From positions 330,001 to 362,000 of the forward strand of contig NC_014729.1 of assembly GCF_000172995.2 (NCBI RefSeq): a DNA stretch of 32,000 bases, read 5' to 3'. The DNA is from Halogeometricum borinquense DSM 11551 (lineage in GTDB: Archaea > Halobacteriota > Halobacteria > Halobacteriales > Haloferacaceae). A program made the position numbers and the translations under genes. The notes under the pieces were generated by a model, which had not been told where the DNA came from, did no database searches, and saw only the letters and a list, made by a program, of their open reading frames with translations. The stretch's first letter is position 1; every line of letters begins with the position of its first letter. Below, piece by piece: positions 4,830-24,907 of the stretch.

Positions 4830-5681
4830 TTAGAAGTCGTCAACGTCGCGCCCGCCGCGGGGCGTGACGAGGTACGTTTCGTAGTCGTTACTCCACGGTT
4901 CGGTCTCGTGCGTGCCGATGAGAATCGACGTTCCCATTCCGCCGACGTCGTCGTCGTGCGACTTCGCGTCGCCGAGAGTCGTAATCGAGAACGTCTCGTC
5001 GTCCAGATTTCGACCCGCCTCGCCGCGACCGGCGTCGTTGAAGATGCCGACCGGAACATCGTCGGCGCGTTCTTCGCGGACGATGTCGATAGCGCGGGTG
5101 TAGTTCCGCCAGCAGTTGTACAGGACGATGACGAAGTTGCTGATGGCGGCCGCGCGCAGTTTCTCCTCGATTTCGTCCCACCCGCGCCACTTGTCGGACA
5201 GCGAAATCGTACAGAAGTCGTTCGACAGCGGCGCGCCCATCATCGCCGCGCCGCCGAGTGCCGCGGTCACGCCGGGGACGATTTCGATTGGAACGTCCGT
5301 CGCGTCGTCGGATTCCGCCATCGTGAACACGAGGTCGGACTTGCCGTAGACGTTCGGGTCACCGCCGGAGACGTGCGCCACGTCCTCGCCGTCTCGAACT
5401 CGCTCGAAGGCTTCGCGGGTCAGTTCGACCTGTTGGCCCATCGAGGAACGGACGACTTCCGGGCCGTCGTCGCTGTCTTCTGGCGGAAGCGTCCCATCGT
5501 CGCGGAGGAATTCCTGATAGAGATTCGAGGCGACGACGCAATCGGAAGTCTGGATGACTTCCTTGGCACGCTGGGTCATGTGATCCGGGAGACCGGGACC
5601 GATGCCGACGACGTAGAGTGTTCCGTAGTCGTCGGGGACTTCCGCGTGGCTGTCTGTCGTCGTCTCCGCGCCTTCGCTCAT
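4830..5681 (-). CDS. cbiH: Second CbiH-like tetrapyrrole methyltransferase (paralog, 283 aa)
   Basis: Motifs are LYVVGIGPGLPDHMT, VSGGDPNVYG, IVPGVTAALGGAAMMGAPL, TISLSDKW, IVLYNCW and LVTPRGG. It shares the ISLSD / TPRG CbiH-type signatures but is divergent. It overlaps cbiG by 4 nt and lies 2 nt upstream of the other cbiH. Confidence 0.85.
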   Translation of the reverse strand: MSEGAETTTDSHAEVPDDYGTLYVVGIGPGLPDHMTQRAKEVIQTSDCVVASNLYQEFLRDDGTLPPEDSDDGPEVVRSSMGQQVELTREAFERVRDGEDVAHVSGGDPNVYGKSDLVFTMAESDDATDVPIEIVPGVTAALGGAAMMGAPLSNDFCTISLSDKWRGWDEIEEKLRAAAISNFVIVLYNCWRNYTRAIDIVREERADDVPVGIFNDAGRGEAGRNLDDETFSITTLGDAKSHDDDVGGMGTSILIGTHETEPWSNDYETYLVTPRGGRDVDDF

Positions 5682-6640
5682 CGTCCCACCGCCACGGTCA
5701 CCGCGTCGTCGTAGCGCTGCTTTTCGACAATGAGTTCGTGGTCGCGGCCGCCGGCAATCGCGCTCGCTTCAGCAATTCCCGGCCAGCCGATGAGTTCCTT
5801 CGACCGCGACGGCGTCGGTCCCTCGAACTCGGTGAGCGTCTCCTTCTCGAAGTAGACGACGCCCGCATCGATTTCTTGGGCGGCGTCGAGCATGCCGGGT
5901 TCGTCGGCCTTTCGCGTGCCGGTGGCGACGAAGTCAACGTCGTCCCAGTCGCAGTCGGCGTCGTCGAGTGCGCGTTCCCACGCGGTCAGGAACTGCTCTT
6001 TCTTCGCGCCGGAGACGCTGCCGGTGCCGAGGACGACGCCGTCGTCGCCGTTTCGCTTGAGAACGGTCACGTCGTCATCGACGAGGACGGCTTTCGGTCC
6101 GTCGAGTCGGGCCACTGGGCCGAGTTCGTCGTTGAGGACGGCGAGGTTCGTCGCAACGGTCGAATCGCCGTTGACGACGTGTGTGTCGAGCGCCTTCGCC
6201 TTGCTCTCGACACCCTGCTTTCCGGCCGCCTCGGAGGCGGTCGTCATCGCCGGCACCGCGCCGAGTTTCGAGAGGTCGTAGGCGACCTGATTCGCGCCGT
6301 GATGTCCGCCGGTGAGCGGAATCGCCCACGTGAGTTCTTCGTCTACGACGACGACCGCGGGGTCTTCCCACTTGTCGTCGAGGAGGCCGGCGGTCTTTCG
6401 CATGGCAATCCCGCTGGCCATCAGGCCGACGAAACAGTCGTATTCGCCCCAATGCTCGGCGAACACGTCGCCGTGGTAGGTGAGGATGTCTATCCTGTCG
6501 TAGTCGTCCGCGAGGTCCCGCTTGATCTCTTCGGCCGTCTCCAGTTTCCGTTCGAAACTGACGATAGCAATCTCGCGGGCGACTTCTCCGTCGCTGTCCG
6601 GTGTACTACAGTGTCCGCTTCCGGAATCAGAATCACTCAT
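5678..6640 (-). CDS. cbiG: Cobalt-precorrin-5A hydrolase CbiG
   Basis: Motifs are FVGLMASGIAMRKTAGLLDDKWEDPAVVVVDE and IPLTGGHHGAN, with a C-terminal ...IGWPGIAEASAI domain. It has 4-nt overlaps with cbiF and the cbiH paralog. Confidence 0.9.
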   Translation of the reverse strand: MSDSDSGSGHCSTPDSDGEVAREIAIVSFERKLETAEEIKRDLADDYDRIDILTYHGDVFAEHWGEYDCFVGLMASGIAMRKTAGLLDDKWEDPAVVVVDEELTWAIPLTGGHHGANQVAYDLSKLGAVPAMTTASEAAGKQGVESKAKALDTHVVNGDSTVATNLAVLNDELGPVARLDGPKAVLVDDDVTVLKRNGDDGVVLGTGSVSGAKKEQFLTAWERALDDADCDWDDVDFVATGTRKADEPGMLDAAQEIDAGVVYFEKETLTEFEGPTPSRSKELIGWPGIAEASAIAGGRDHELIVEKQRYDDAVTVAVGR

Positions 6641-7482
6641 TGTGTATCACGCTCCTGTGTTTCAGAATCGTCGCCGTCGTTCGGCGCGTCACCACCGCGA
6701 GCCCAGTCGCCGTAGAGGAACGACCGCTCGTAGTCTGAGCCGGTGACCGCCTCGCCAATCATCACGAGTGCCGAAGCCCGATAGCCGGCTTCGGACACCT
6801 TCTGGCCAATCGTCTCGATGGTACCTTCGATAACGTCCTCGTCCGGCCACGAGGCGTGGTAGACGACCGCGACCGGCGTCTCGGGGTCGTGTCCCTCGTC
6901 CAGCAGTCGGTCCATCGTTTCTTCAACGGCGTGCGTCCCGAGGTAGATACACACCGTCGTGTCGCCGAAGCCGACGAAGTCGCTGATGTGGTCTTCTTCG
7001 GCAGAGAGCGTCCGACCCTGTGGCCGGGTAAAGACGACGTGATTTGCGACTTCGTTCAGCGTCAACTGCGTTCTGAGCGTCGCGCTCGCGGCGAATGCGG
7101 AGGTGACGCCCGGAACGAGGTACGTCGGCACGCCCTCGGATTCCAGCGCGTCCATCTGTTCGAGCGCCGCACCGTATACCGCCGGGTCGCCGCTGTGAAG
7201 ACGGACGACCGTCTCGCCGGATTCGTAAGCGTCGGCCATCAGCGGAATCAGCTCTTCGAGGTCCTTGCCGACGCTGTTGACCTGCTCGGCGTGGTCACAG
7301 TACTCGTCGAGGAGTTCGCTGTTGACGAGCGACCCGGCGTGAACGACGAGGTCTGCTTCTTCGACGAGTCGCCGCCCCGCGACCGTAAGCAGTTCAGGGT
7401 CGCCCGGCCCGGCACCGACGAAGGGAATCCCCTCCTTGTCGGTGAAGCCGGTGTCTGCGTCGCCGTCGACGGGGTCGCTCAT
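6637..7482 (-). CDS. cbiF: Cobalt-precorrin-4 C11-methyltransferase CbiF
   Basis: Motifs are FVGAGPGDPELLTVAGRRLVEEADLVVHAGSLV, VVRLHSGDPAVYGA and LVPGVTSAFAASA. Confidence 0.9.
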   Translation of the reverse strand: MSDPVDGDADTGFTDKEGIPFVGAGPGDPELLTVAGRRLVEEADLVVHAGSLVNSELLDEYCDHAEQVNSVGKDLEELIPLMADAYESGETVVRLHSGDPAVYGAALEQMDALESEGVPTYLVPGVTSAFAASATLRTQLTLNEVANHVVFTRPQGRTLSAEEDHISDFVGFGDTTVCIYLGTHAVEETMDRLLDEGHDPETPVAVVYHASWPDEDVIEGTIETIGQKVSEAGYRASALVMIGEAVTGSDYERSFLYGDWARGGDAPNDGDDSETQERDTQ

Positions 7483-8207
7483 TTCGACACCTCCGGCTCG
7501 ACCGCGTCGGTATCCGCCGACTCAGCGTCGAACTCCGCGGTCGCAACGTCACGTTCGAGACCTTCGCGCTCTGCGTACGCCAGCGTGTAGTAATCACGTT
7601 CTGCGATTTCCTGCGGATTCGACGTTACGAGCGTCTCACCCTGCTCCATGAAGAGACGGCGTCCGAATTTTACATCGTATCCGGCTTCTGTCAGCCCCTC
7701 GTAGGTCGCGGGGGCGTCGGTGACCTTGAACAGAATCATCCGATCAGGCCCGGTCGGGGCCGCGCCGTTTGCGGCCTCGCGGAGCGAGAGGCCGGTTCCG
7801 GATTCGATTTCGACGCCGAGTGCGGTGGCGAACGCCGTCATCGCACTCACGCCGGGCACGACTTCGAGTTCGACCGCTGGATGGAACGCATCGAGCGTCC
7901 GGCGGAGATGGCCGAACGTCGAATACACGTTCGGGTCGCCGAGCGTCACGAATGCAACGTCACCCGATTCGGCTCTCTCTGCGACCTCTGCGGCGGCTTC
8001 CTTCCACGCGCGTCGGAGTTCGTCCGGGTCGCGCGTCATCGGGAAGTCGAGGTCGCCGATTCGTTCTTCGGGGACGTGGTTCAGCGCGACAGTCCGCGAG
8101 AGTCGGCCCGGAGAGTAGACCACATCGACCGATTCGAGAATCCGCTTTCCTTTGACGGTCACGAGGTCGGCATCGCCGGGACCCAATCCGACGCCGTAGA
8201 CGGTCAT
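7479..8207 (-). CDS. cbiL: Cobalt-factor II (precorrin-2) C20-methyltransferase CbiL
   Basis: Motifs are MTVYGVGLGPGDADLVTVKGKRILESVDVVYSPG, VAFVTLGDPNVYSTF and VVPGVSAMTAFA. Confidence 0.88.
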   Translation of the reverse strand: MTVYGVGLGPGDADLVTVKGKRILESVDVVYSPGRLSRTVALNHVPEERIGDLDFPMTRDPDELRRAWKEAAAEVAERAESGDVAFVTLGDPNVYSTFGHLRRTLDAFHPAVELEVVPGVSAMTAFATALGVEIESGTGLSLREAANGAAPTGPDRMILFKVTDAPATYEGLTEAGYDVKFGRRLFMEQGETLVTSNPQEIAERDYYTLAYAEREGLERDVATAEFDAESADTDAVEPEVSK

Positions 8208-8764
8208 CAGTCCAGCCCTCCGGCGTCGCGCCGTCCGACGATGATGTACACCGGATTGTTGGATTTGAAACTCGTCGCTCCGGCGAGTTCGTAGCCGTGG
8301 CTCACCTGCATCTGGACGACTTCGTCGAGCAGGTCACGTTCGCGGAAGGCCTCGATTGCCGCACCGGTCGGTTCGACCCGCGAGACGTTCATGACGACGC
8401 GGTCGATTTCGGATTTGACGGCGTGGTCCAGCACCGCCTCGAAGTTCCGGCTCCCGCCGATGAACATCGCATCCGCGTCGTCCGGGAGACCTGCCGGTGC
8501 TTCCGCCTCGTGGAGCGCTACGTCGGCATCGTACTCGTTCGCCGCGAGGTTCTTCCGCGTCACCTCCAGTCGCTTTGCCTTTCGTTCGACAGCGGTCACC
8601 CGTTTGACTCGTTGCGCCGCTTCGATGCTAACCGACCCGGTACACGACCCGACATCGACGAAGTGGTCAGTCGGACGTAAGTCGAGTTTGTCGAGCGTTA
8701 CCGCTCGCACCTCCGACTTCGTCGGTCCTGCCTTGGCGTCGTGCGGGAGCGTTACGCGTGACAT
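8207..8764 (-). CDS. cbiT: Cobalt-precorrin-6B C15-methyltransferase (decarboxylating) CbiT, first gene of the operon
   Basis: PTKSEVRAVTLDKLDLRPTDHFVDVGSCTGSVSIEAA is a class I SAM methyltransferase motif in the CbiT context. The gene is 185 aa and overlaps the cbiL start by 1 nt. Confidence 0.88.
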   Translation of the reverse strand: MSRVTLPHDAKAGPTKSEVRAVTLDKLDLRPTDHFVDVGSCTGSVSIEAAQRVKRVTAVERKAKRLEVTRKNLAANEYDADVALHEAEAPAGLPDDADAMFIGGSRNFEAVLDHAVKSEIDRVVMNVSRVEPTGAAIEAFRERDLLDEVVQMQVSHGYELAGATSFKSNNPVYIIVGRRDAGGLD

Positions 8765-8929
8765 TCGAATCTACTATCCAGACGACGTTTGAAAACAATT
8801 ATGCTTGTAGTACAGCAAACTGAGTTTCACAACCGATGCGGCTGTAATTATTAAACCCGAGTTGCGTTAGAACAATCAAAATTGATTTATGTCGGTGCTC
8901 TCATCGAACCGACACGGAGAGATTCACTA
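8765..8929. promoter_or_regulatory. AT-rich divergent control region between the cbiT operon and cbiMNQO
   Basis: This is a 165-bp AT-rich spacer in a GC-rich genome. TATA-like AATTAT lies at 8797-8802, about 35 nt from the cbiT ATG on the minus strand. AATTATTAAA at 8846-8855 and ATTTAT at 8885-8890 lie upstream of cbiM. There is an imperfect palindrome GCTTGTAGTACAGC at 8803-8816 and a 5-bp hairpin GTCGG...CCGAC at 8891-8913. Confidence 0.5.
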
Positions 8930-9592
8930 ATGCACATCATGGAAGGGTTTTTGCCACCGTTTTGGGCGTTCGTTTGGACGGCGGTCGCGCTCCCGTTCGT
9001 CGCCTACGGAGCCAAGCGAACGATCAAAACGATGCGGGCAGACACCAAAATGAAGGCGCTCATCGCAATCGGGACGGCGTTCGTCTTCGTTCTCTCGGCG
9101 CTCAAACTCCCATCGGTGACCGGGAGTAGTTCGCACCCGACTGGGACAGGTGTCATGGTCGTCCTGTTCGGTCCGGCAGTCACCGCTTTCGCCGCCGCTA
9201 TCGTCCTCCTCTATCAGTCTTTACTGCTTGCCCACGGAGGACTGACGACGCTCGGTGCGAACGTTGTGGCAATGGGAATCGTCGGCCCGTTCGTCGGTTG
9301 GGTCGCATACCGTGCCGTTCGGTCGTCCCTCTCGCTCGAACAATCGACGTTCGTCGCCGCGGTACTCGCTGACTGGACGACGTATCTCACCACATCGGTC
9401 CAACTTGGGGTAGCGTTCCCCGGAGGTGGTGGAATCGATGGTATACTCACATCAGTCATCGACTTCGTTGCGGTGTTCGCCATCACGCAAGTCCCCATTG
9501 GGATTCTCGAAGGTGTCATCGCGGCGGCACTCGTCGGCTATCTCGCTCGCGTGGGTTCAGTTACGAAAGACCGTCTGGGGGTCACAGCATGA
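8930..9592 (+). CDS. cbiM: Cobalt ECF transporter substrate-capture component CbiM
   Basis: I placed the start at ATG 8930, giving MHIMEGFLPPFWAF. The Met-His N-terminus is the conserved metal-ligating start of CbiM/NikM. The protein is multi-pass hydrophobic. The ORF-track TTG start at 8882 is rejected. Confidence 0.9.
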   Translation: MHIMEGFLPPFWAFVWTAVALPFVAYGAKRTIKTMRADTKMKALIAIGTAFVFVLSALKLPSVTGSSSHPTGTGVMVVLFGPAVTAFAAAIVLLYQSLLLAHGGLTTLGANVVAMGIVGPFVGWVAYRAVRSSLSLEQSTFVAAVLADWTTYLTTSVQLGVAFPGGGGIDGILTSVIDFVAVFAITQVPIGILEGVIAAALVGYLARVGSVTKDRLGVTA

Positions 9593-9861
9593 AACGTCCG
9601 CTCGCGGCTGGTCTGTTGGTTGTCGGTCTCGTCATCCTCAGTACGATAGCGGTGTCTGGGCTGGGGGCGACAGACGAACAGGCGGTCGCAACGATCACAG
9701 ACAAGGATCCGAACTACAGTCCGTGGATGGGCCCCGTATGGGAACCACCGGGTGGGTACGGAGAGATGGCGCTGTTCGCACTACAGGGAGGTGTTGCGGC
9801 CTTCGTCCTGACGTACTACGTCGAGCGCCTCACGGACGGGACGTATGCATCAGACGCTTGA
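9589..9861 (+). CDS. cbiN: Cobalt transport protein CbiN
   Basis: The 90-aa protein has two TM segments flanking ...DKDPNYSPWMGPVWEPPGGYGEMALFALQ. It has an ATGA overlap with cbiM. Confidence 0.85.
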   Translation: MKRPLAAGLLVVGLVILSTIAVSGLGATDEQAVATITDKDPNYSPWMGPVWEPPGGYGEMALFALQGGVAAFVLTYYVERLTDGTYASDA

Positions 9862-10576
9862 AGGCATTCAGGCCGAAGCGACGCCGGTCATCGACGGGCC
9901 GCTGAAAGTATATTTTGTCGCGGTCTCGCTGTTGTTGACTGCGACGAGCGCTCGCCTTCCGACGTTCGTCGCCGTCATCGTTGTCTTCTCGGTTCTCACG
10001 ACGCACGCCGTCGGACGGGCGTATTTCAGATTCGTTCGGTATCCGTTCTGGTTTCTGGTCCCGAGCCTCGCCCTGATTACGTTCGTCACTCCCGGTCAGA
10101 CGGTCTTCGAGTATTCCGTCCTTCACGTCTCTGAGGAGGGGGTTCGACTTGCGATACGGACTGGCCTGCGCTCAGTCGCGTCGCTGTCGGTGCTCTCGTT
10201 TCTCGCGCTCACTACGACTGTTCCGCAACTCGTCTCTGCGTTGGACAGACTGGGTCTTCCCGATTCGATTGTCGAGATGCTGCTGTTGGTGTACCGCGGC
10301 ATTCAGGTACTGATCGACGAATCGATTCGGCTGTACACCGCCGCAAAACTCCGCGGTGGGTTCACGTCTCGACGCTCGACGTTCCGAACGACGAAACACG
10401 TCGCAACATCACTGCTTTTGAGTTCGCTCGACAGCGCAGAACAACTCGACTTGTCGATGCGCTCGCGGTGCTACTCCGGTCGCTTCCCAGTTCGAGAGTA
10501 CGAGAGCCACGGTCACGCGTACGCACTGGGTGTGCTCGCTGTCATCGTGTTCGTGAAATTCGGACAGCTGCTATGA
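9845..10576 (+). CDS. cbiQ: ECF transporter transmembrane (T) component CbiQ
   Basis: The protein is hydrophobic, with ...LRSVASLSVLSFLALTTTVPQLVSALDRLGLP...LLLVYRGIQVLIDE...AAKLRGG, the ARG-type coupling motif region of EcfT/CbiQ. Confidence 0.85.
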   Translation: MHQTLEGIQAEATPVIDGPLKVYFVAVSLLLTATSARLPTFVAVIVVFSVLTTHAVGRAYFRFVRYPFWFLVPSLALITFVTPGQTVFEYSVLHVSEEGVRLAIRTGLRSVASLSVLSFLALTTTVPQLVSALDRLGLPDSIVEMLLLVYRGIQVLIDESIRLYTAAKLRGGFTSRRSTFRTTKHVATSLLLSSLDSAEQLDLSMRSRCYSGRFPVREYESHGHAYALGVLAVIVFVKFGQLL

Positions 10577-11268
10577 TACGCACTGACGACCTTCATTTCG
10601 GCTACGACGAACAGTCTATCCTCCGTGGAATCGACTTCCGCGCCGAGACGGGAGACGTAACGGTCCTGCTCGGGCGGAACGGCGCCGGTAAATCGACGCT
10701 TCTCAAGCATCTCAACGGACTTCTCGAACCCGACCGCGGTCACGTGATGATCGACGGCGACCGGATTCAGTACGACGACGATAGCCTCCTCAGCCTCCGA
10801 CAGGAGGTCGGATTCGTGTTTCAGGACCCCGACGACCAACTCGTCGCCCCGACGGTCGAACAGGACGTGGCGTTCGGTCCGATCAACCTCGGCACCGACC
10901 CGACTGAAGCCGTCGAGTGGGCGCTCTCCCGCGTCGGCCTTGCGGGCTACGAAGATCGTCTGTGTAGCCGACTGAGCGGTGGCGAGAAAAAGCGCGTCGC
11001 ACTGGCGGGCGTCCTCGCCATGAAGCCGAAATACCTCATTTTCGATGAACCGACGGCCGGTCTCGACGGTGATGGGACGCGCGCACTCGTTGATCTCATT
11101 CGTGAACTCACGAACGAGGGCATCTCTTTCGTCGTTTCGACCCACTACCCCGACTTTGCCGCTGCAGTCGGCGATACGTTCACGCTAATCGACGATGGAC
11201 AGGTCGCCTGCCGTGAGTCGTCGCTCGATGAAATTCCCGCAAAGAAGTATGGGCTGAGAGGAGTCTGA
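10573..11268 (+). CDS. cbiO: ECF/cobalt ABC transporter ATPase CbiO
   Basis: I placed the start at ATG 10573 (MIRTDDLHFGY), which has an ATGA overlap with the cbiQ stop. Walker A is GRNGAGKST, the signature is LSGGEKKRVALAG and Walker B is LIFDEPTAGLD. Confidence 0.9.
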   Translation: MIRTDDLHFGYDEQSILRGIDFRAETGDVTVLLGRNGAGKSTLLKHLNGLLEPDRGHVMIDGDRIQYDDDSLLSLRQEVGFVFQDPDDQLVAPTVEQDVAFGPINLGTDPTEAVEWALSRVGLAGYEDRLCSRLSGGEKKRVALAGVLAMKPKYLIFDEPTAGLDGDGTRALVDLIRELTNEGISFVVSTHYPDFAAAVGDTFTLIDDGQVACRESSLDEIPAKKYGLRGV

Positions 11269-23659: not shown

Positions 23660-23793
23660 CGGTGGAACGAGCGAGCGCTACGACCGTTCTCATCGAAATC
23701 ACAAACTGCCCGCTGTGGCTTTCCTGTGGCGAACAGAGGACTGAAAAAGCGACGGAGTTGACGGTATCTCCAGAACGCTAATGGGTGTGAGTA

Positions 23794-23831
23794 CGTCGGG
23801 GGAGTGAGCGAAGCGAACGGACCCGACGGGA
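23794..23831. repeat. Distal copy of a 38-bp direct repeat derived from the tRNA-Arg 3' end and flank (att-like)
   Basis: CGTCGGGGGAGTGAGCGAAGCGAACGGACCCGACGGGA matches 24811-24848 at 37 of 38 positions. Weaker similarity extends about 25 nt further toward lower coordinates. Confidence 0.9.
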
Positions 23832-23935
23832 ATGCGTCATCGCGTGTGACAGAACCGTGTTAATCGGCGTGCTGTCTGGCGATTAACGACACACAGTTCT
23901 AACTACCGCAGATACACTTCTACCTGCTCGACGAC

Positions 23936-24232
23936 TTAGTCTACAAACGCCTTTTCGAGACGCCCTTGCCAGGCGACGAAGTCCTCTTTCCGAGGTGAAT
24001 GAACTGCCCACGGTGAGACGAACGAGTCGCGAGGAACACCACCGACCTCCCACAGGTCATCGGTAAGTGGGAGTGAATCGTCGTACCCCTTCGTCGAGAT
24101 GGCGACGGCGATGTACTGCTGGTCACCGAACGGGTGCGTGCTATTGTTGACGATAAGCCACGGTCGTTGCCTGTCGTCGCCGAGTTTGAACGGGTCGGAA
24201 CTCCGGACGACGTCACCACGCTCTGGTTGCAT
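23936..24232 (-). CDS. PemK/MazF-like type II toxin (98 aa)
   Basis: MQPERGDVVRSSDPFKLGDDRQRPWLIVNNSTHPFGDQQYIAVAISTKGYDDSLPL has the RGDVV...RPxLIVsn...ISTk pattern of MazF/PemK SH3-like toxins. The gene starts immediately after the upstream gene's stop. Confidence 0.75.
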   Translation of the reverse strand: MQPERGDVVRSSDPFKLGDDRQRPWLIVNNSTHPFGDQQYIAVAISTKGYDDSLPLTDDLWEVGGVPRDSFVSPWAVHSPRKEDFVAWQGRLEKAFVD

Positions 24233-24604
24233 CTACTGTTCGTCCTCGTCTCGTTCGCTCGGATGGGGTGCTTCTGGTGCCACTGTCTCCCATTCGTCAG
24301 CGTCGATACCGCCGTCTTCGTCGTCTAGTCTGTCGGTCGTGGTGTGGAGGTCGTACGCGGCGGCGACGCGCTCGTCGTCATCCGTGATTGCCCAGAACTC
24401 CCGCTTGTGGCGAACGAGATTACGGTCCTTCAAGCGGGAGAGTGCAGTGCCGACGGTGTTCGGGTCTTCACTGATGGCGGTCGCAATCTCCGAGCGCGTG
24501 AACGCCTGATCGCTGTGGGTGTAGAGATACGTGACCACCTGTTCCGGGACGCTTGGTCCTCGTGGAAGGTCACCGGACTCGAAGTCGTCGATGCTCACGG
24601 GCAT
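24233..24604 (-). CDS. Winged-helix (MarR/TrmB-like) protein with acidic tail, the putative cognate antitoxin/autorepressor
   Basis: VVTYLYTHSDQAFTRSEIATAISEDPNTVGTALSRLKDRNLVRHKREFWAI is the wHTH. The C-terminal tail DDEDGGIDADEWE...ERDEDEQ is highly acidic. The stop (24233-24235) abuts the toxin ATG (24230-24232). Confidence 0.7.
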   Translation of the reverse strand: MPVSIDDFESGDLPRGPSVPEQVVTYLYTHSDQAFTRSEIATAISEDPNTVGTALSRLKDRNLVRHKREFWAITDDDERVAAAYDLHTTTDRLDDEDGGIDADEWETVAPEAPHPSERDEDEQ

Positions 24605-24810
24605 ACTATGACTGTAGTGTGCTGATGTAATGAGTGTACTGCTGTACTTTGTGTGCTGGATATCGTAGTGAGTTCGTCACGGTGCGTGCCAGACCCCGTG
24701 GACGAGAAAACGTGTGATTTGGGGGCTACAGCACTCGTTCTTTGGTTCTACACCGCTCCAGAACTGTACGGACCCGACGGGACTCCCACGAGCGCTAGCG
24801 AGTGGGAGGT

Positions 24811-24848
24811 CGTCGGGGGAGTGAGCGACGCGAACGGACCCGACGGGA
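24811..24848. repeat. Proximal copy of the 38-bp direct repeat, overlapping the last 14 nt of tRNA-Arg
   Basis: CGTCGGGGGAGTGAGCGACGCGAACGGACCCGACGGGA. A third partial copy, ACGGACCCGACGGGA, lies at 24768-24782. Confidence 0.9.
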
Positions 24849-24907
24849 TTTGAACCCGCGACATCTTGGTCCGGAACCAAGCACTCTGTCCACTGAGCTA
24901 CGGGCCC
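24835..24907 (-). tRNA. tRNA-Arg (anticodon CCG), 73 nt, CCA not encoded
   Basis: The minus strand folds as GGGCCCG-TA-GCTC-AGTGGACA-GAGT-G-CTTGG-TTCCGGA-CCAAG-ATGTC-GCGGG-TTCAAAT-CCCGT-CGGGTCC-G. This is a full cloverleaf with U33, anticodon CCG and the TTCAAAT T-loop. Confidence 0.93.

Follow-up and report, generated by a model that had tools for sequence, protein, structure and literature searches.

Toxin-antitoxin (TA) modules are assumed to be mobile, and to our knowledge the vehicles by which they spread among chromosomes are mostly unknown, above all in archaea. The genome of Halogeometricum borinquense DSM 11551 raises this question in compact form: within a 32-kb stretch of it, the whole of which was analysed and is called the window below, an islet consisting of a winged helix-turn-helix (wHTH) protein gene and a MazF-like toxin gene (the latter bearing the locus tag C499_19382 on AOHT01000053) lies between direct repeats of the 3' end of a tRNA-Arg(CCG) gene, with no integrase gene beside it. 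Is the islet what remains of a larger integrated element, or a unit that moves in its own right? Comparison with related loci indicates that it is one unit of an apparently undescribed family of small TA cassettes without an integrase, which occur in variable arrays behind the tRNA-Arg(CCG) gene of Haloferacaceae (Halogeometricum and Haloferax).

The only tRNA identified in the window by ARAGORN is tRNA-Arg(CCG) (24835-24907, on the minus strand like every other feature located here; 65.6 bits against the Rfam tRNA model), which heads the array as its attB- or attI-like anchor; a MATE transporter gene and this tRNA lie upstream of the array. The 15-nt core ACGGACCCGACGGGA occurs exactly three times in the window (starts 23817, 24768 and 24834). 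Core 1 (24834-24848; TCCCGTCGGGTCCGT in the tRNA sense) is made of the final 14 nt of the tRNA plus one nucleotide, core 2 (24768-24782) is the left boundary of the cassette, and core 3 (23817-23831) is its right boundary. At up to two mismatches, 0.35 chance matches are expected, and three were reached in 1 of 100 shuffles. A decayed fourth core with four mismatches (TACCGTCAACTCCGT, 23752-23766) was recognized on reading the sequence. In the tRNA sense, core 1 is followed by a 51-nt spacer with a 7-bp hairpin, core 2, 936 nt with two abutting genes, and core 3, beyond which come a partial second copy of the spacer, the decayed core 4 and, some 215 nt on, the end of katG. The exact and decayed cores thereby bound a structured mini-unit of 66 nt and a cassette of 951 nt.

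An earlier note on this DNA, made from the letters alone, had described the repeat as 38 nt with one mismatch; that repeat is present and extends to 59 nt at 86% identity (23773-23831 versus 24790-24848), and in light of the fourth core this long repeat is a core plus a mini-unit, present on either side of the cassette. The third copy of the tRNA-end core that the note had placed at 24768-24782 is an exact match, and the two abutting genes that it took for the sole cargo (24233-24604 and 23936-24232, both minus strand) are the only genes between the cores. Both of its hairpins exist, GTTAATCG-N13-CGATTAAC where it was reported (23859-23887) and CTCCCAC-N12-GTGGGAG one base away from the reported position, at 24783-24808. 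Its observation that no integrase is encoded nearby was upheld by a tblastn search of the 32 kb, in which two same-core integrases had no match.

For comparison, the MATE-tRNA-Arg(CCG) locus was collected from one genome per species, and 22 loci were scanned for tRNAs. Each of the 22 has one tRNA-Arg(CCG), which heads every related array. Tandem cassette arrays are present in ten species, with every cassette bounded by the same 15-nt core; the cores, from one to more than ten per locus, are found only downstream of the tRNA, and none occurs in the 8-9.5 kb upstream. Larger open reading frames beyond the arrays, judged by eye, are ordinary-looking genes.

The cassettes differ in cargo. K0, the cassette of the window (951 nt), carries the wHTH and MazF-like pair; K1 (1370 nt) carries a wHTH-DUF7437 protein and a PIN-like protein; K2 (1435 nt) carries a wHTH-nucleotidyltransferase and a protein with a weak HEPN match; K3 (1.5-1.9 kb) carries Fic/DOC with a wHTH protein on the opposite strand; and K4 (1005 nt) carries a PIN-domain VapC behind a small open reading frame that looks AbrB-like by eye and has no Pfam match. 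K0 recurs with the same boundaries in six other sequences, those of Hfx. (Haloferax) larsenii, Hfx. marisrubri, Hfx. namakaokahaiae, Hfx. gibbonsii and Hfx. chudinovii and a metagenome contig, at the first, second, third or last position of the array; the metagenome scan returned two contigs, one of them identical to Hfx. chudinovii. The array reads K1-K0 in Hfx. marisrubri, begins with K0 in Hfx. gibbonsii, and reads K0-K1-K2 in Hfx. chudinovii, K2-K1-K3 in Hfx. elongans, long unit-mini-unit-K0-K9-K1-mini-unit in Hfx. namakaokahaiae, and mini-unit-K1-mini-unit-K4-mini-unit in Hfx. prahovense. Thus, cassette order is permuted among species and the presence or absence of each cassette is independent, as in a reassorting array.

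Cassette-free loci also exist. Hfx. massiliensis and Hfx. denitrificans have the core of the tRNA alone, and Halogeometricum limi (L007), the closest species in the set (MATE 92% identical in amino acids), and a Haloferacaceae archaeon (L023) have the tRNA, one mini-unit and then a native flank, TTTGTG..GTTTCG.GTGAACGAG..TCGTACCGAATCCCC. The same flank follows the last core in three occupied loci (L020, L032 and L046) as well as in these two, which makes the arrays insertions that separate the tRNA from its ancestral 3' flank. The unoccupied site that the earlier note had proposed to seek in relatives was thus found.

The cassettes are also decoupled from their hosts. Among Hfx. marisrubri, Hfx. 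gibbonsii and Hfx. chudinovii, the MATE gene is 95.0-96.9% identical in nucleotide sequence with a synonymous divergence (dS) of 0.12-0.19, versus 82.6-86.4% identity and a dS of 0.49-0.71, three to five times as high, for the K0 cassette; the cassettes of these sister species are therefore not orthologues by descent. Between genera, cassette divergence is not above MATE divergence.

The cassettes share their termini as well as the core. The right end, about 60 nt (..TAATCGCCAGACA.C...CCGATTAAAACAGATTCGTCACACGCGATGACGCAT) abutting the core, is common to cassettes with unrelated genes; in the window (23832-23892, nhmmer E 2e-18) it comprises TAATCG-N12/13-CGATTA, which is the hairpin at 23859-23887, GATT repeats, and CGTCA-N7-TGACG. 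The left end, about 105 nt and common to many cassettes, begins directly past the core (ACAGTTCTGGAACGCTTTAGAACCAAAGAGCGAG...CGTCACGCACCGTGACG); the copy in the window, of type A (24662-24767, nhmmer profile E 5e-24), starts at the base next to core 2 and contains GTTCT-N10-AGAAC, AGAGC-N4-GCTCT and CGTCAC-N5-GTGACG. All 33 matches of the right-end nhmmer profile, over at least five kinds of cargo, finish exactly at a core, and all 28 matches of the left-end profile begin exactly after one, while neither profile has a match away from cores in about 0.8 Mb of loci. These ends are shared by cassettes with the MazF-like pair, the PIN-like pair, MNT/HEPN, Fic or VapBC.

Several other identities for the ends were considered and rejected. 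An attC-like or terminator hairpin kept by its structure does not suit the right end, in which none of nine predicted pairs shows a compensatory change (RNAalifold); because the right end is conserved in sequence without such changes, it suits a protein-binding site more than a folded one. Descent of the left end from a decayed tRNA was rejected, since it aligns locally to the tRNA no better than to shuffled sequence and Rfam finds only the tRNA itself. No terminal inverted repeat of the transposon kind could be read, and in the type-B left end the TAATCG-CAGACA motif recurs in the same orientation. Nor does a shared regulator account for the shared left end, as the K0 and K1 antitoxins have no similarity.

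A second class of right end, ..CCGTTCG.CCACCG.ACGAAA followed by GCCCGTCGGGTCCGT (G for the first T), accompanies Fic-type cassettes whose left end starts with CATTTTCTAAAACC (L009, which is Hfx. larsenii JCM 13917, AOLI01000014.1, at 14093; L010 at 11878; L014 at 11950; L019 at 13589; L011 at 14343), so that one core serves cassette ends of at least two or three families. In L009, extra short units (92, 111, 112 and 90 nt) and a duplicated tRNA within 9580-11135 were set aside as probable assembly artefacts on account of N's and duplications of about 90 nt; artefactual 90-bp repeats have been reported for the sequencing study behind this genome (PMC7911831).

A second strain of H. borinquense (GCA_004150395.1, RZHH01000001.1; L051), in which the MATE protein is identical to that of DSM 11551 and the flank 99.7% identical, has a larger array at the same tRNA. 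Its array (5535-9419) reads tRNA, mini-unit, long unit of 108 nt, mini-unit, K0, mini-unit and further cassettes (DUF4352 and Fic). Proximal to K0, it has 174 nt more than DSM 11551, exactly a long unit plus a mini-unit; since neither mini-unit A, on one side, nor the left end of K0, on the other, is disrupted, this crossover was confined to the 15-nt core. Distal to K0, the difference starts inside the mini-unit, at about window position 23785. The array of DSM 11551, as compared here, is contracted to one cassette, and its distal mini-unit (23767-23816), a hybrid or decayed copy whose first 32 or so nucleotides match the mini-unit after the cassette of the sister strain before similarity ends at about 23785, looks like the outcome of a recombination event between two mini-units in which the distal cassettes were lost. 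The two K0 cassettes differ at 2 of 966 nt, one of which is C in the sister strain and T in DSM 11551 at window position 23938 (CAA versus TAA), so that the sister strain codes for a full toxin of 109 amino acids.

Mini-unit A (24783-24833) spans the 51 nt that separate core 1 from core 2; the sister strain has the identical sequence, and the unit recurs in at least 12 species. It contains the 7-bp hairpin (24783-24808) and an inverse core (CCCCGACG in the tRNA sense, about 24811-24818), which reads CCCAACG where the tRNA core reads CGTTGGG. Among 19 distinct copies, compensatory changes affect 4 of the 7 pairs of the hairpin (CG, GC or UA at the closing pair). Mini-units fall into a length class of 62-72 nt among the loci and also stand alone beside the tRNA where there are no cassettes (L007 and L023). 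The long units, 104-109 nt between cores, combine a covarying hairpin with two copies of the tRNA T-loop and acceptor region, one inverted (CCGACGGATTTGAATC) and one direct (GGTTCAAATCCCGTCGG), as if the 3' end of the tRNA had been extended into a palindrome (L008, 12544-12662; L010, 9579-9702; L011, 9645-9768; L014, 9571-9689; L051, 5601-5723). No Rfam family other than tRNA matches the locus; the mini-unit may be a folded recombination site or a tRNA-trailer RNA. In two loci, L011 and L014, the tRNA has a variant core (TCCCGTTGGGTCCGT), and the corresponding change is present in nearly all downstream cores and in the inverse cores of the mini-units. Such homogenization to the tRNA variant of the host points to concerted evolution, or else to a crossover point located 5' of the variant position.

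The cargo of K0 has the organization of a type II TA operon, with the stop of the putative antitoxin gene (24233) abutting the start of the toxin gene (24232), the antitoxin gene directly upstream, and the gene pair conserved across genera. The putative antitoxin (24233-24604) has 123 amino acids, with an N-terminal winged-helix-like domain and an acidic C-terminal tail, and is assigned by gene order and weak helix-turn-helix matches (Pfam E 1e-3; PADLOC AbiEi E 4e-3); it is 89-95% identical among six Haloferax cassettes, and its AlphaFold2 model from the single sequence has a predicted local distance difference test score (pLDDT) of 50, too low for use. The region upstream of the operon (24605-24661, agtacagcagtacactcattacatcag...), a putative promoter and operator of a near-leaderless transcript, is also conserved where other genera carry the TA pair outside cassettes. 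Because the operon has this conserved upstream sequence of its own, the left end of the cassette would not be needed to account for its expression.

The toxin family averages 79% identity over many haloarchaeal genera and is nearly always 109 amino acids long, and some sources label its members PemK/MazF. A model made from 30 homologues (pLDDT 85, predicted template modelling score 0.79) was the only confident one of five, and its top 50 Foldseek matches in the Protein Data Bank (PDB) are all MazF (template modelling score 0.6-0.73, probability 1.00), in keeping with the SH3-like beta-barrel of MazF and CcdB. A MazF fold is thus supported by the predicted structure, in line with the MazF-like label that the earlier note gave this protein; its PemK label, taken as membership of PF02452, was not borne out at a cut-off of 23.1 bits (13.4 bits for the 98-residue protein and 17.1 bits for the 109-residue one), and no match was obtained from NCBIfam, from a profile search against PDB sequences or from PADLOC. 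In DSM 11551 the gene (23936-24232) is shortened to 98 amino acids by TAA at 23936-23938 (Q99stop, from CAA), which takes away the conserved C-terminal 11 residues. Ten further codons remain in frame past the stop (23903-23935), a remnant of the ancestral C-terminus that reads VVEQVEVYLR followed by a stop, as identified by alignment with 29 homologues and the translation from the sister strain. The module of DSM 11551 is therefore probably attenuated, with a recent Q99stop and loss of a conserved C-terminal helix. The pair resembles MazEF/PemIK in its two abutting genes, antitoxin first, and in the MazF fold of the toxin. It differs in that the antitoxin combines a wHTH domain with an acidic tail instead of the AbrB-type fold of MazE, the toxin lies under the PF02452 cut-off, and the family is unusually conserved and has a fixed chromosomal context in most genera.

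Copies of the TA pair lie away from tRNAs in Natronomonas halophila, Haloplanus halobius and Halegenticoccus soli (about 5530-6360 of L041, L042 and L043), with toxins 76-79% identical and neighbouring genes partly conserved. In Haloplanus and Halegenticoccus the pair stands between copies of another direct repeat, 16-21 nt long, GCCCGGAACACTA(A/C)CG (TGTGCGCCCGGAACACTACCG / TGTACGCCCGGAACACTAACG), of which Natronomonas has a diverged version; in these two genera a non-coding stretch downstream of the pair is conserved too. On the comparison of these copies, the TA pair appears to be an old haloarchaeal module that generic cassette ends would have captured in Haloferacaceae.

The core is also the target of elements that do encode an integrase. 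Elements of 3.1 kb (L028), 7.5 kb (L033) and 7.6 kb (L046 and L047) at the same tRNA have the same core and a tyrosine integrase (PF00589) at the far end, and the repeat of those in L033 and L046 is the 14-15-nt core alone, the same extent as in the cassettes. They share neither ends nor TA genes with the cassettes. Those of about 7.5 kb form a family with DUF7563, DUF7845, a variable middle and a distal tyrosine integrase (3466-11080 of L046 and L047; 9580-17126 of L033), which is present in several Haloferax strains with internal cargo that depends on the strain (DUF6414 versus a Fic fragment).

The islet is probably, on this evidence, a discrete, non-autonomous TA cassette that is moved in trans by site-specific recombination. 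Conservative site-specific recombination from core to core would bring cassettes in and out, by way of a circular intermediate with the junction order right end, core, left end. The enzyme, a tyrosine recombinase acting in trans from a gene located elsewhere, would belong to a mobile element or to the host, and the conserved cassette ends would be the arms to which proteins bind. The TA cargo, a predicted MazF-fold endoribonuclease with a putative wHTH antitoxin, would act as an addiction module that stabilizes the cassette and the array, like the TA cassettes of chromosomal integrons. Of the possibilities left by the earlier note, its view of the repeats as att-type scars gains from a core that bounds cassettes in ten species, the cassette-free sites, and the integrase elements with the same core. 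Its minimal cassette mobilized in trans fits best, given a 951-nt unit that recurs with identical boundaries at varied array positions and with a dS decoupled from that of the host, and its repeated integration and excision is right insofar as the loci are arrays.

Certain results weigh against this reading. No recombinase linked to the cassettes was found, neither in the window (where, as noted above, the two same-core integrases have no match) nor on Halogeometricum plasmids in PLSDB. The search for same-core integrases that the earlier note had in mind was fruitful in other Haloferax (L028, L033, L046 and L047) and fruitless for the window and for those plasmids, which have no close homologue of the L033-type integrase; within the very large haloarchaeal family to which this integrase belongs, none of the best 120 of the 1225 matches at E<=1e-20 is from Halogeometricum. 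The integrase elements at this tRNA do not contain the cassette ends, so that their arm sites, if any, differ. The junction patterns and the tRNA 3' end gave no match in viral contigs, and the cassette junction gave none in PLSDB; matches in the plasmid search, on megaplasmids of Haladaptatus and Halorussus, were limited to the coding part of the TA pair, and those in the phage search to the tRNA. No circular form of a cassette was seen among the contigs, the shortest of which (L006) is a linear chromosomal fragment. The right-end hairpin does not covary and the toxin falls below the PemK cut-off. The distal difference between the two H. borinquense strains resembles homologous rather than site-specific recombination, and the cores that share the tRNA variant of their host (L011 and L014) could mean conversion in place instead of frequent import.

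The last two points belong to an alternative in which the locus is old and vertically inherited and its repeats serve only homologous recombination or gene conversion, including allele replacement after mating of the Haloferax type. The ends of 60-105 nt and the mini-units would provide the homology, the distal breakpoint of DSM 11551 lies within a mini-unit, the cassettes have no linked recombinase, and the TA pair is ancient with a fixed non-tRNA context in other genera. Nevertheless, a site-specific event is required to place a cassette for the first time precisely where the tRNA ends, with the 15-nt core duplicated, the proximal 174-nt crossover between the strains is confined to 15 nt, and permuted orders (K0-K1 versus K1-K0; K2-K1 versus K1-K2) are hard to obtain by unequal crossing-over alone. 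Since the core is, moreover, demonstrably used by integrase elements, homologous recombination, though a serious rival, is unlikely to be the whole explanation. That the islet is the residue of a larger provirus or plasmid, stripped of its integrase and of all but the addiction module, as the earlier note had also proposed, is most improbable: although integrated elements of archaea are often without an integrase, presumably through gene loss (PMC8371274), the same 951-nt unit with the same ends is discrete in six other genomes, independent decay would not halt at identical boundaries, and the integrase elements of 3-7.6 kb at this site have neither its ends nor its TA genes. What stands of that proposal is that the array of DSM 11551 is smaller than that of its sister strain and that its toxin is truncated.

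The core, the inverse core and the hairpin units could instead be elements of the tRNA transcript or of its regulation (trailer processing or termination), between copies of which the TA genes merely happen to lie. The covarying hairpin of the mini-unit, an inverse core that tracks the tRNA variant, and mini-units at cassette-free loci (L007 and L023) all agree with such a role. It is very unlikely to be the explanation of the islet, however, because it leaves the cassette-specific ends, the shuffled cargo and the termination of integrase elements at that very core unexplained, many arrays have no mini-units between cassettes (L013, L032 and L034), and Rfam recognizes only the tRNA. A bolder form of the trans-mobilized cassette reading, which is entertained as a possibility with some doubt, is that Haloferacaceae have an integron-like capture system of their own, independent of IntI, in which the tRNA 3' end would be the counterpart of attI, the right end with the core that of attC, and the mini-units folded variants, with a dedicated recombinase moving self-expressed TA cassettes in trans.

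The locus makes a vehicle for TA modules visible: a standard cassette of about 1 kb with conserved termini and one tRNA anchor, reassorted among species and strains with at least five TA types. If the cassettes do move by site-specific recombination in trans, they would be an independently arisen archaeal counterpart of integron and CIME (cis-mobilizable element) biology, and a platform for TA mobility in archaea that evolved apart from IntI integrons. Haloferax is a genus with good genetics, in which the recombinase, the att requirements and the stabilizing role of the TA genes would be directly approachable, and haloarchaeal genetics would also gain a small, naturally occurring att cassette for site-specific integration. 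For annotation, the arrays account for the short 'tRNA fragments' and orphan TA pairs that accumulate 3' of tRNA-Arg(CCG).

A literature search found no description of tRNA-anchored TA cassette arrays, and the nearest known systems each match in part. Integrated genetic elements (IGEs) of haloarchaea and pleolipoproviruses, with XerC/D-like integrases, have terminal repeats of a tRNA 3' end, as papers on Haloferax and Halorubrum describe: Humcor2 has a 13-nt att and terminal repeats duplicating the 3' part of a tRNA (PMC7911831), the IGEs of Hfx. gibbonsii LR2-5 have an integrase and tRNA-derived terminal repeats (PMC7921747), and the elements of L028, L033, L046 and L047 are such elements at tRNA-Arg(CCG). 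Like these, the cassettes have direct repeats of the tRNA 3' end and an unoccupied site; they differ in lacking an integrase of their own, in their size (0.95 kb for K0, versus 3-40 kb with the integrase near one end) and in their arms. A review of archaeal tyrosine recombinases describes tandem integrations and also elements without an integrase, the latter ascribed to gene loss (PMC8371274).

The likeness to integrons, and to clusters of attC sites lacking integron integrases (CALINs), is closer. In both, small one-operon units stand in tandem, each with a conserved end of about 60-75 nt and a short invariant core that bounds the units of a reassorting array; relatives differ in the order of their cassettes; TA modules that bring their own promoters are a prominent part of the cargo; and, as in CALINs, no integrase is adjacent. 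The 'inverse core ... core' layout of the mini-unit with its covarying stem also recalls attC. Archaeal integron cassettes are enriched in TA modules, according to a paper that also gives the references for the Vibrio superintegron and names neither Halobacteria nor tRNA (PMC9668308). Unlike integrons, the haloarchaeal arrays have no IntI, attI or cassette promoter (Pc) beside them, the 3' end of a tRNA gene supplies both their anchor and their core, and the right end of the cassette is conserved in sequence instead of being an imperfect hairpin of the attC type, with a conserved left end in addition. CIMEs, which are att-flanked elements without recombination genes of their own (PMC5704250), and the accretion at tRNA genes of ICEs (integrative and conjugative elements) and of IMEs (integrative and mobilizable elements) in Firmicutes provide the other parallel, with attL and attR in the absence of integration and transfer genes, and tandem placement at the 3' end of a target gene that is also used by integrase-bearing elements. 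CIMEs, however, are decayed ICEs or IMEs of several kilobases, whereas these are archaeal standard cassettes of 1-1.4 kb with family-wide termini, no conjugation and no sign of descent from the resident autonomous elements with the same att. Because they have neither IntI nor an attC-type structure, nor any sign of descent from an autonomous element, the arrays are filed here outside both integrons and CIMEs, as a variant of site-specific cassette and accretion systems.

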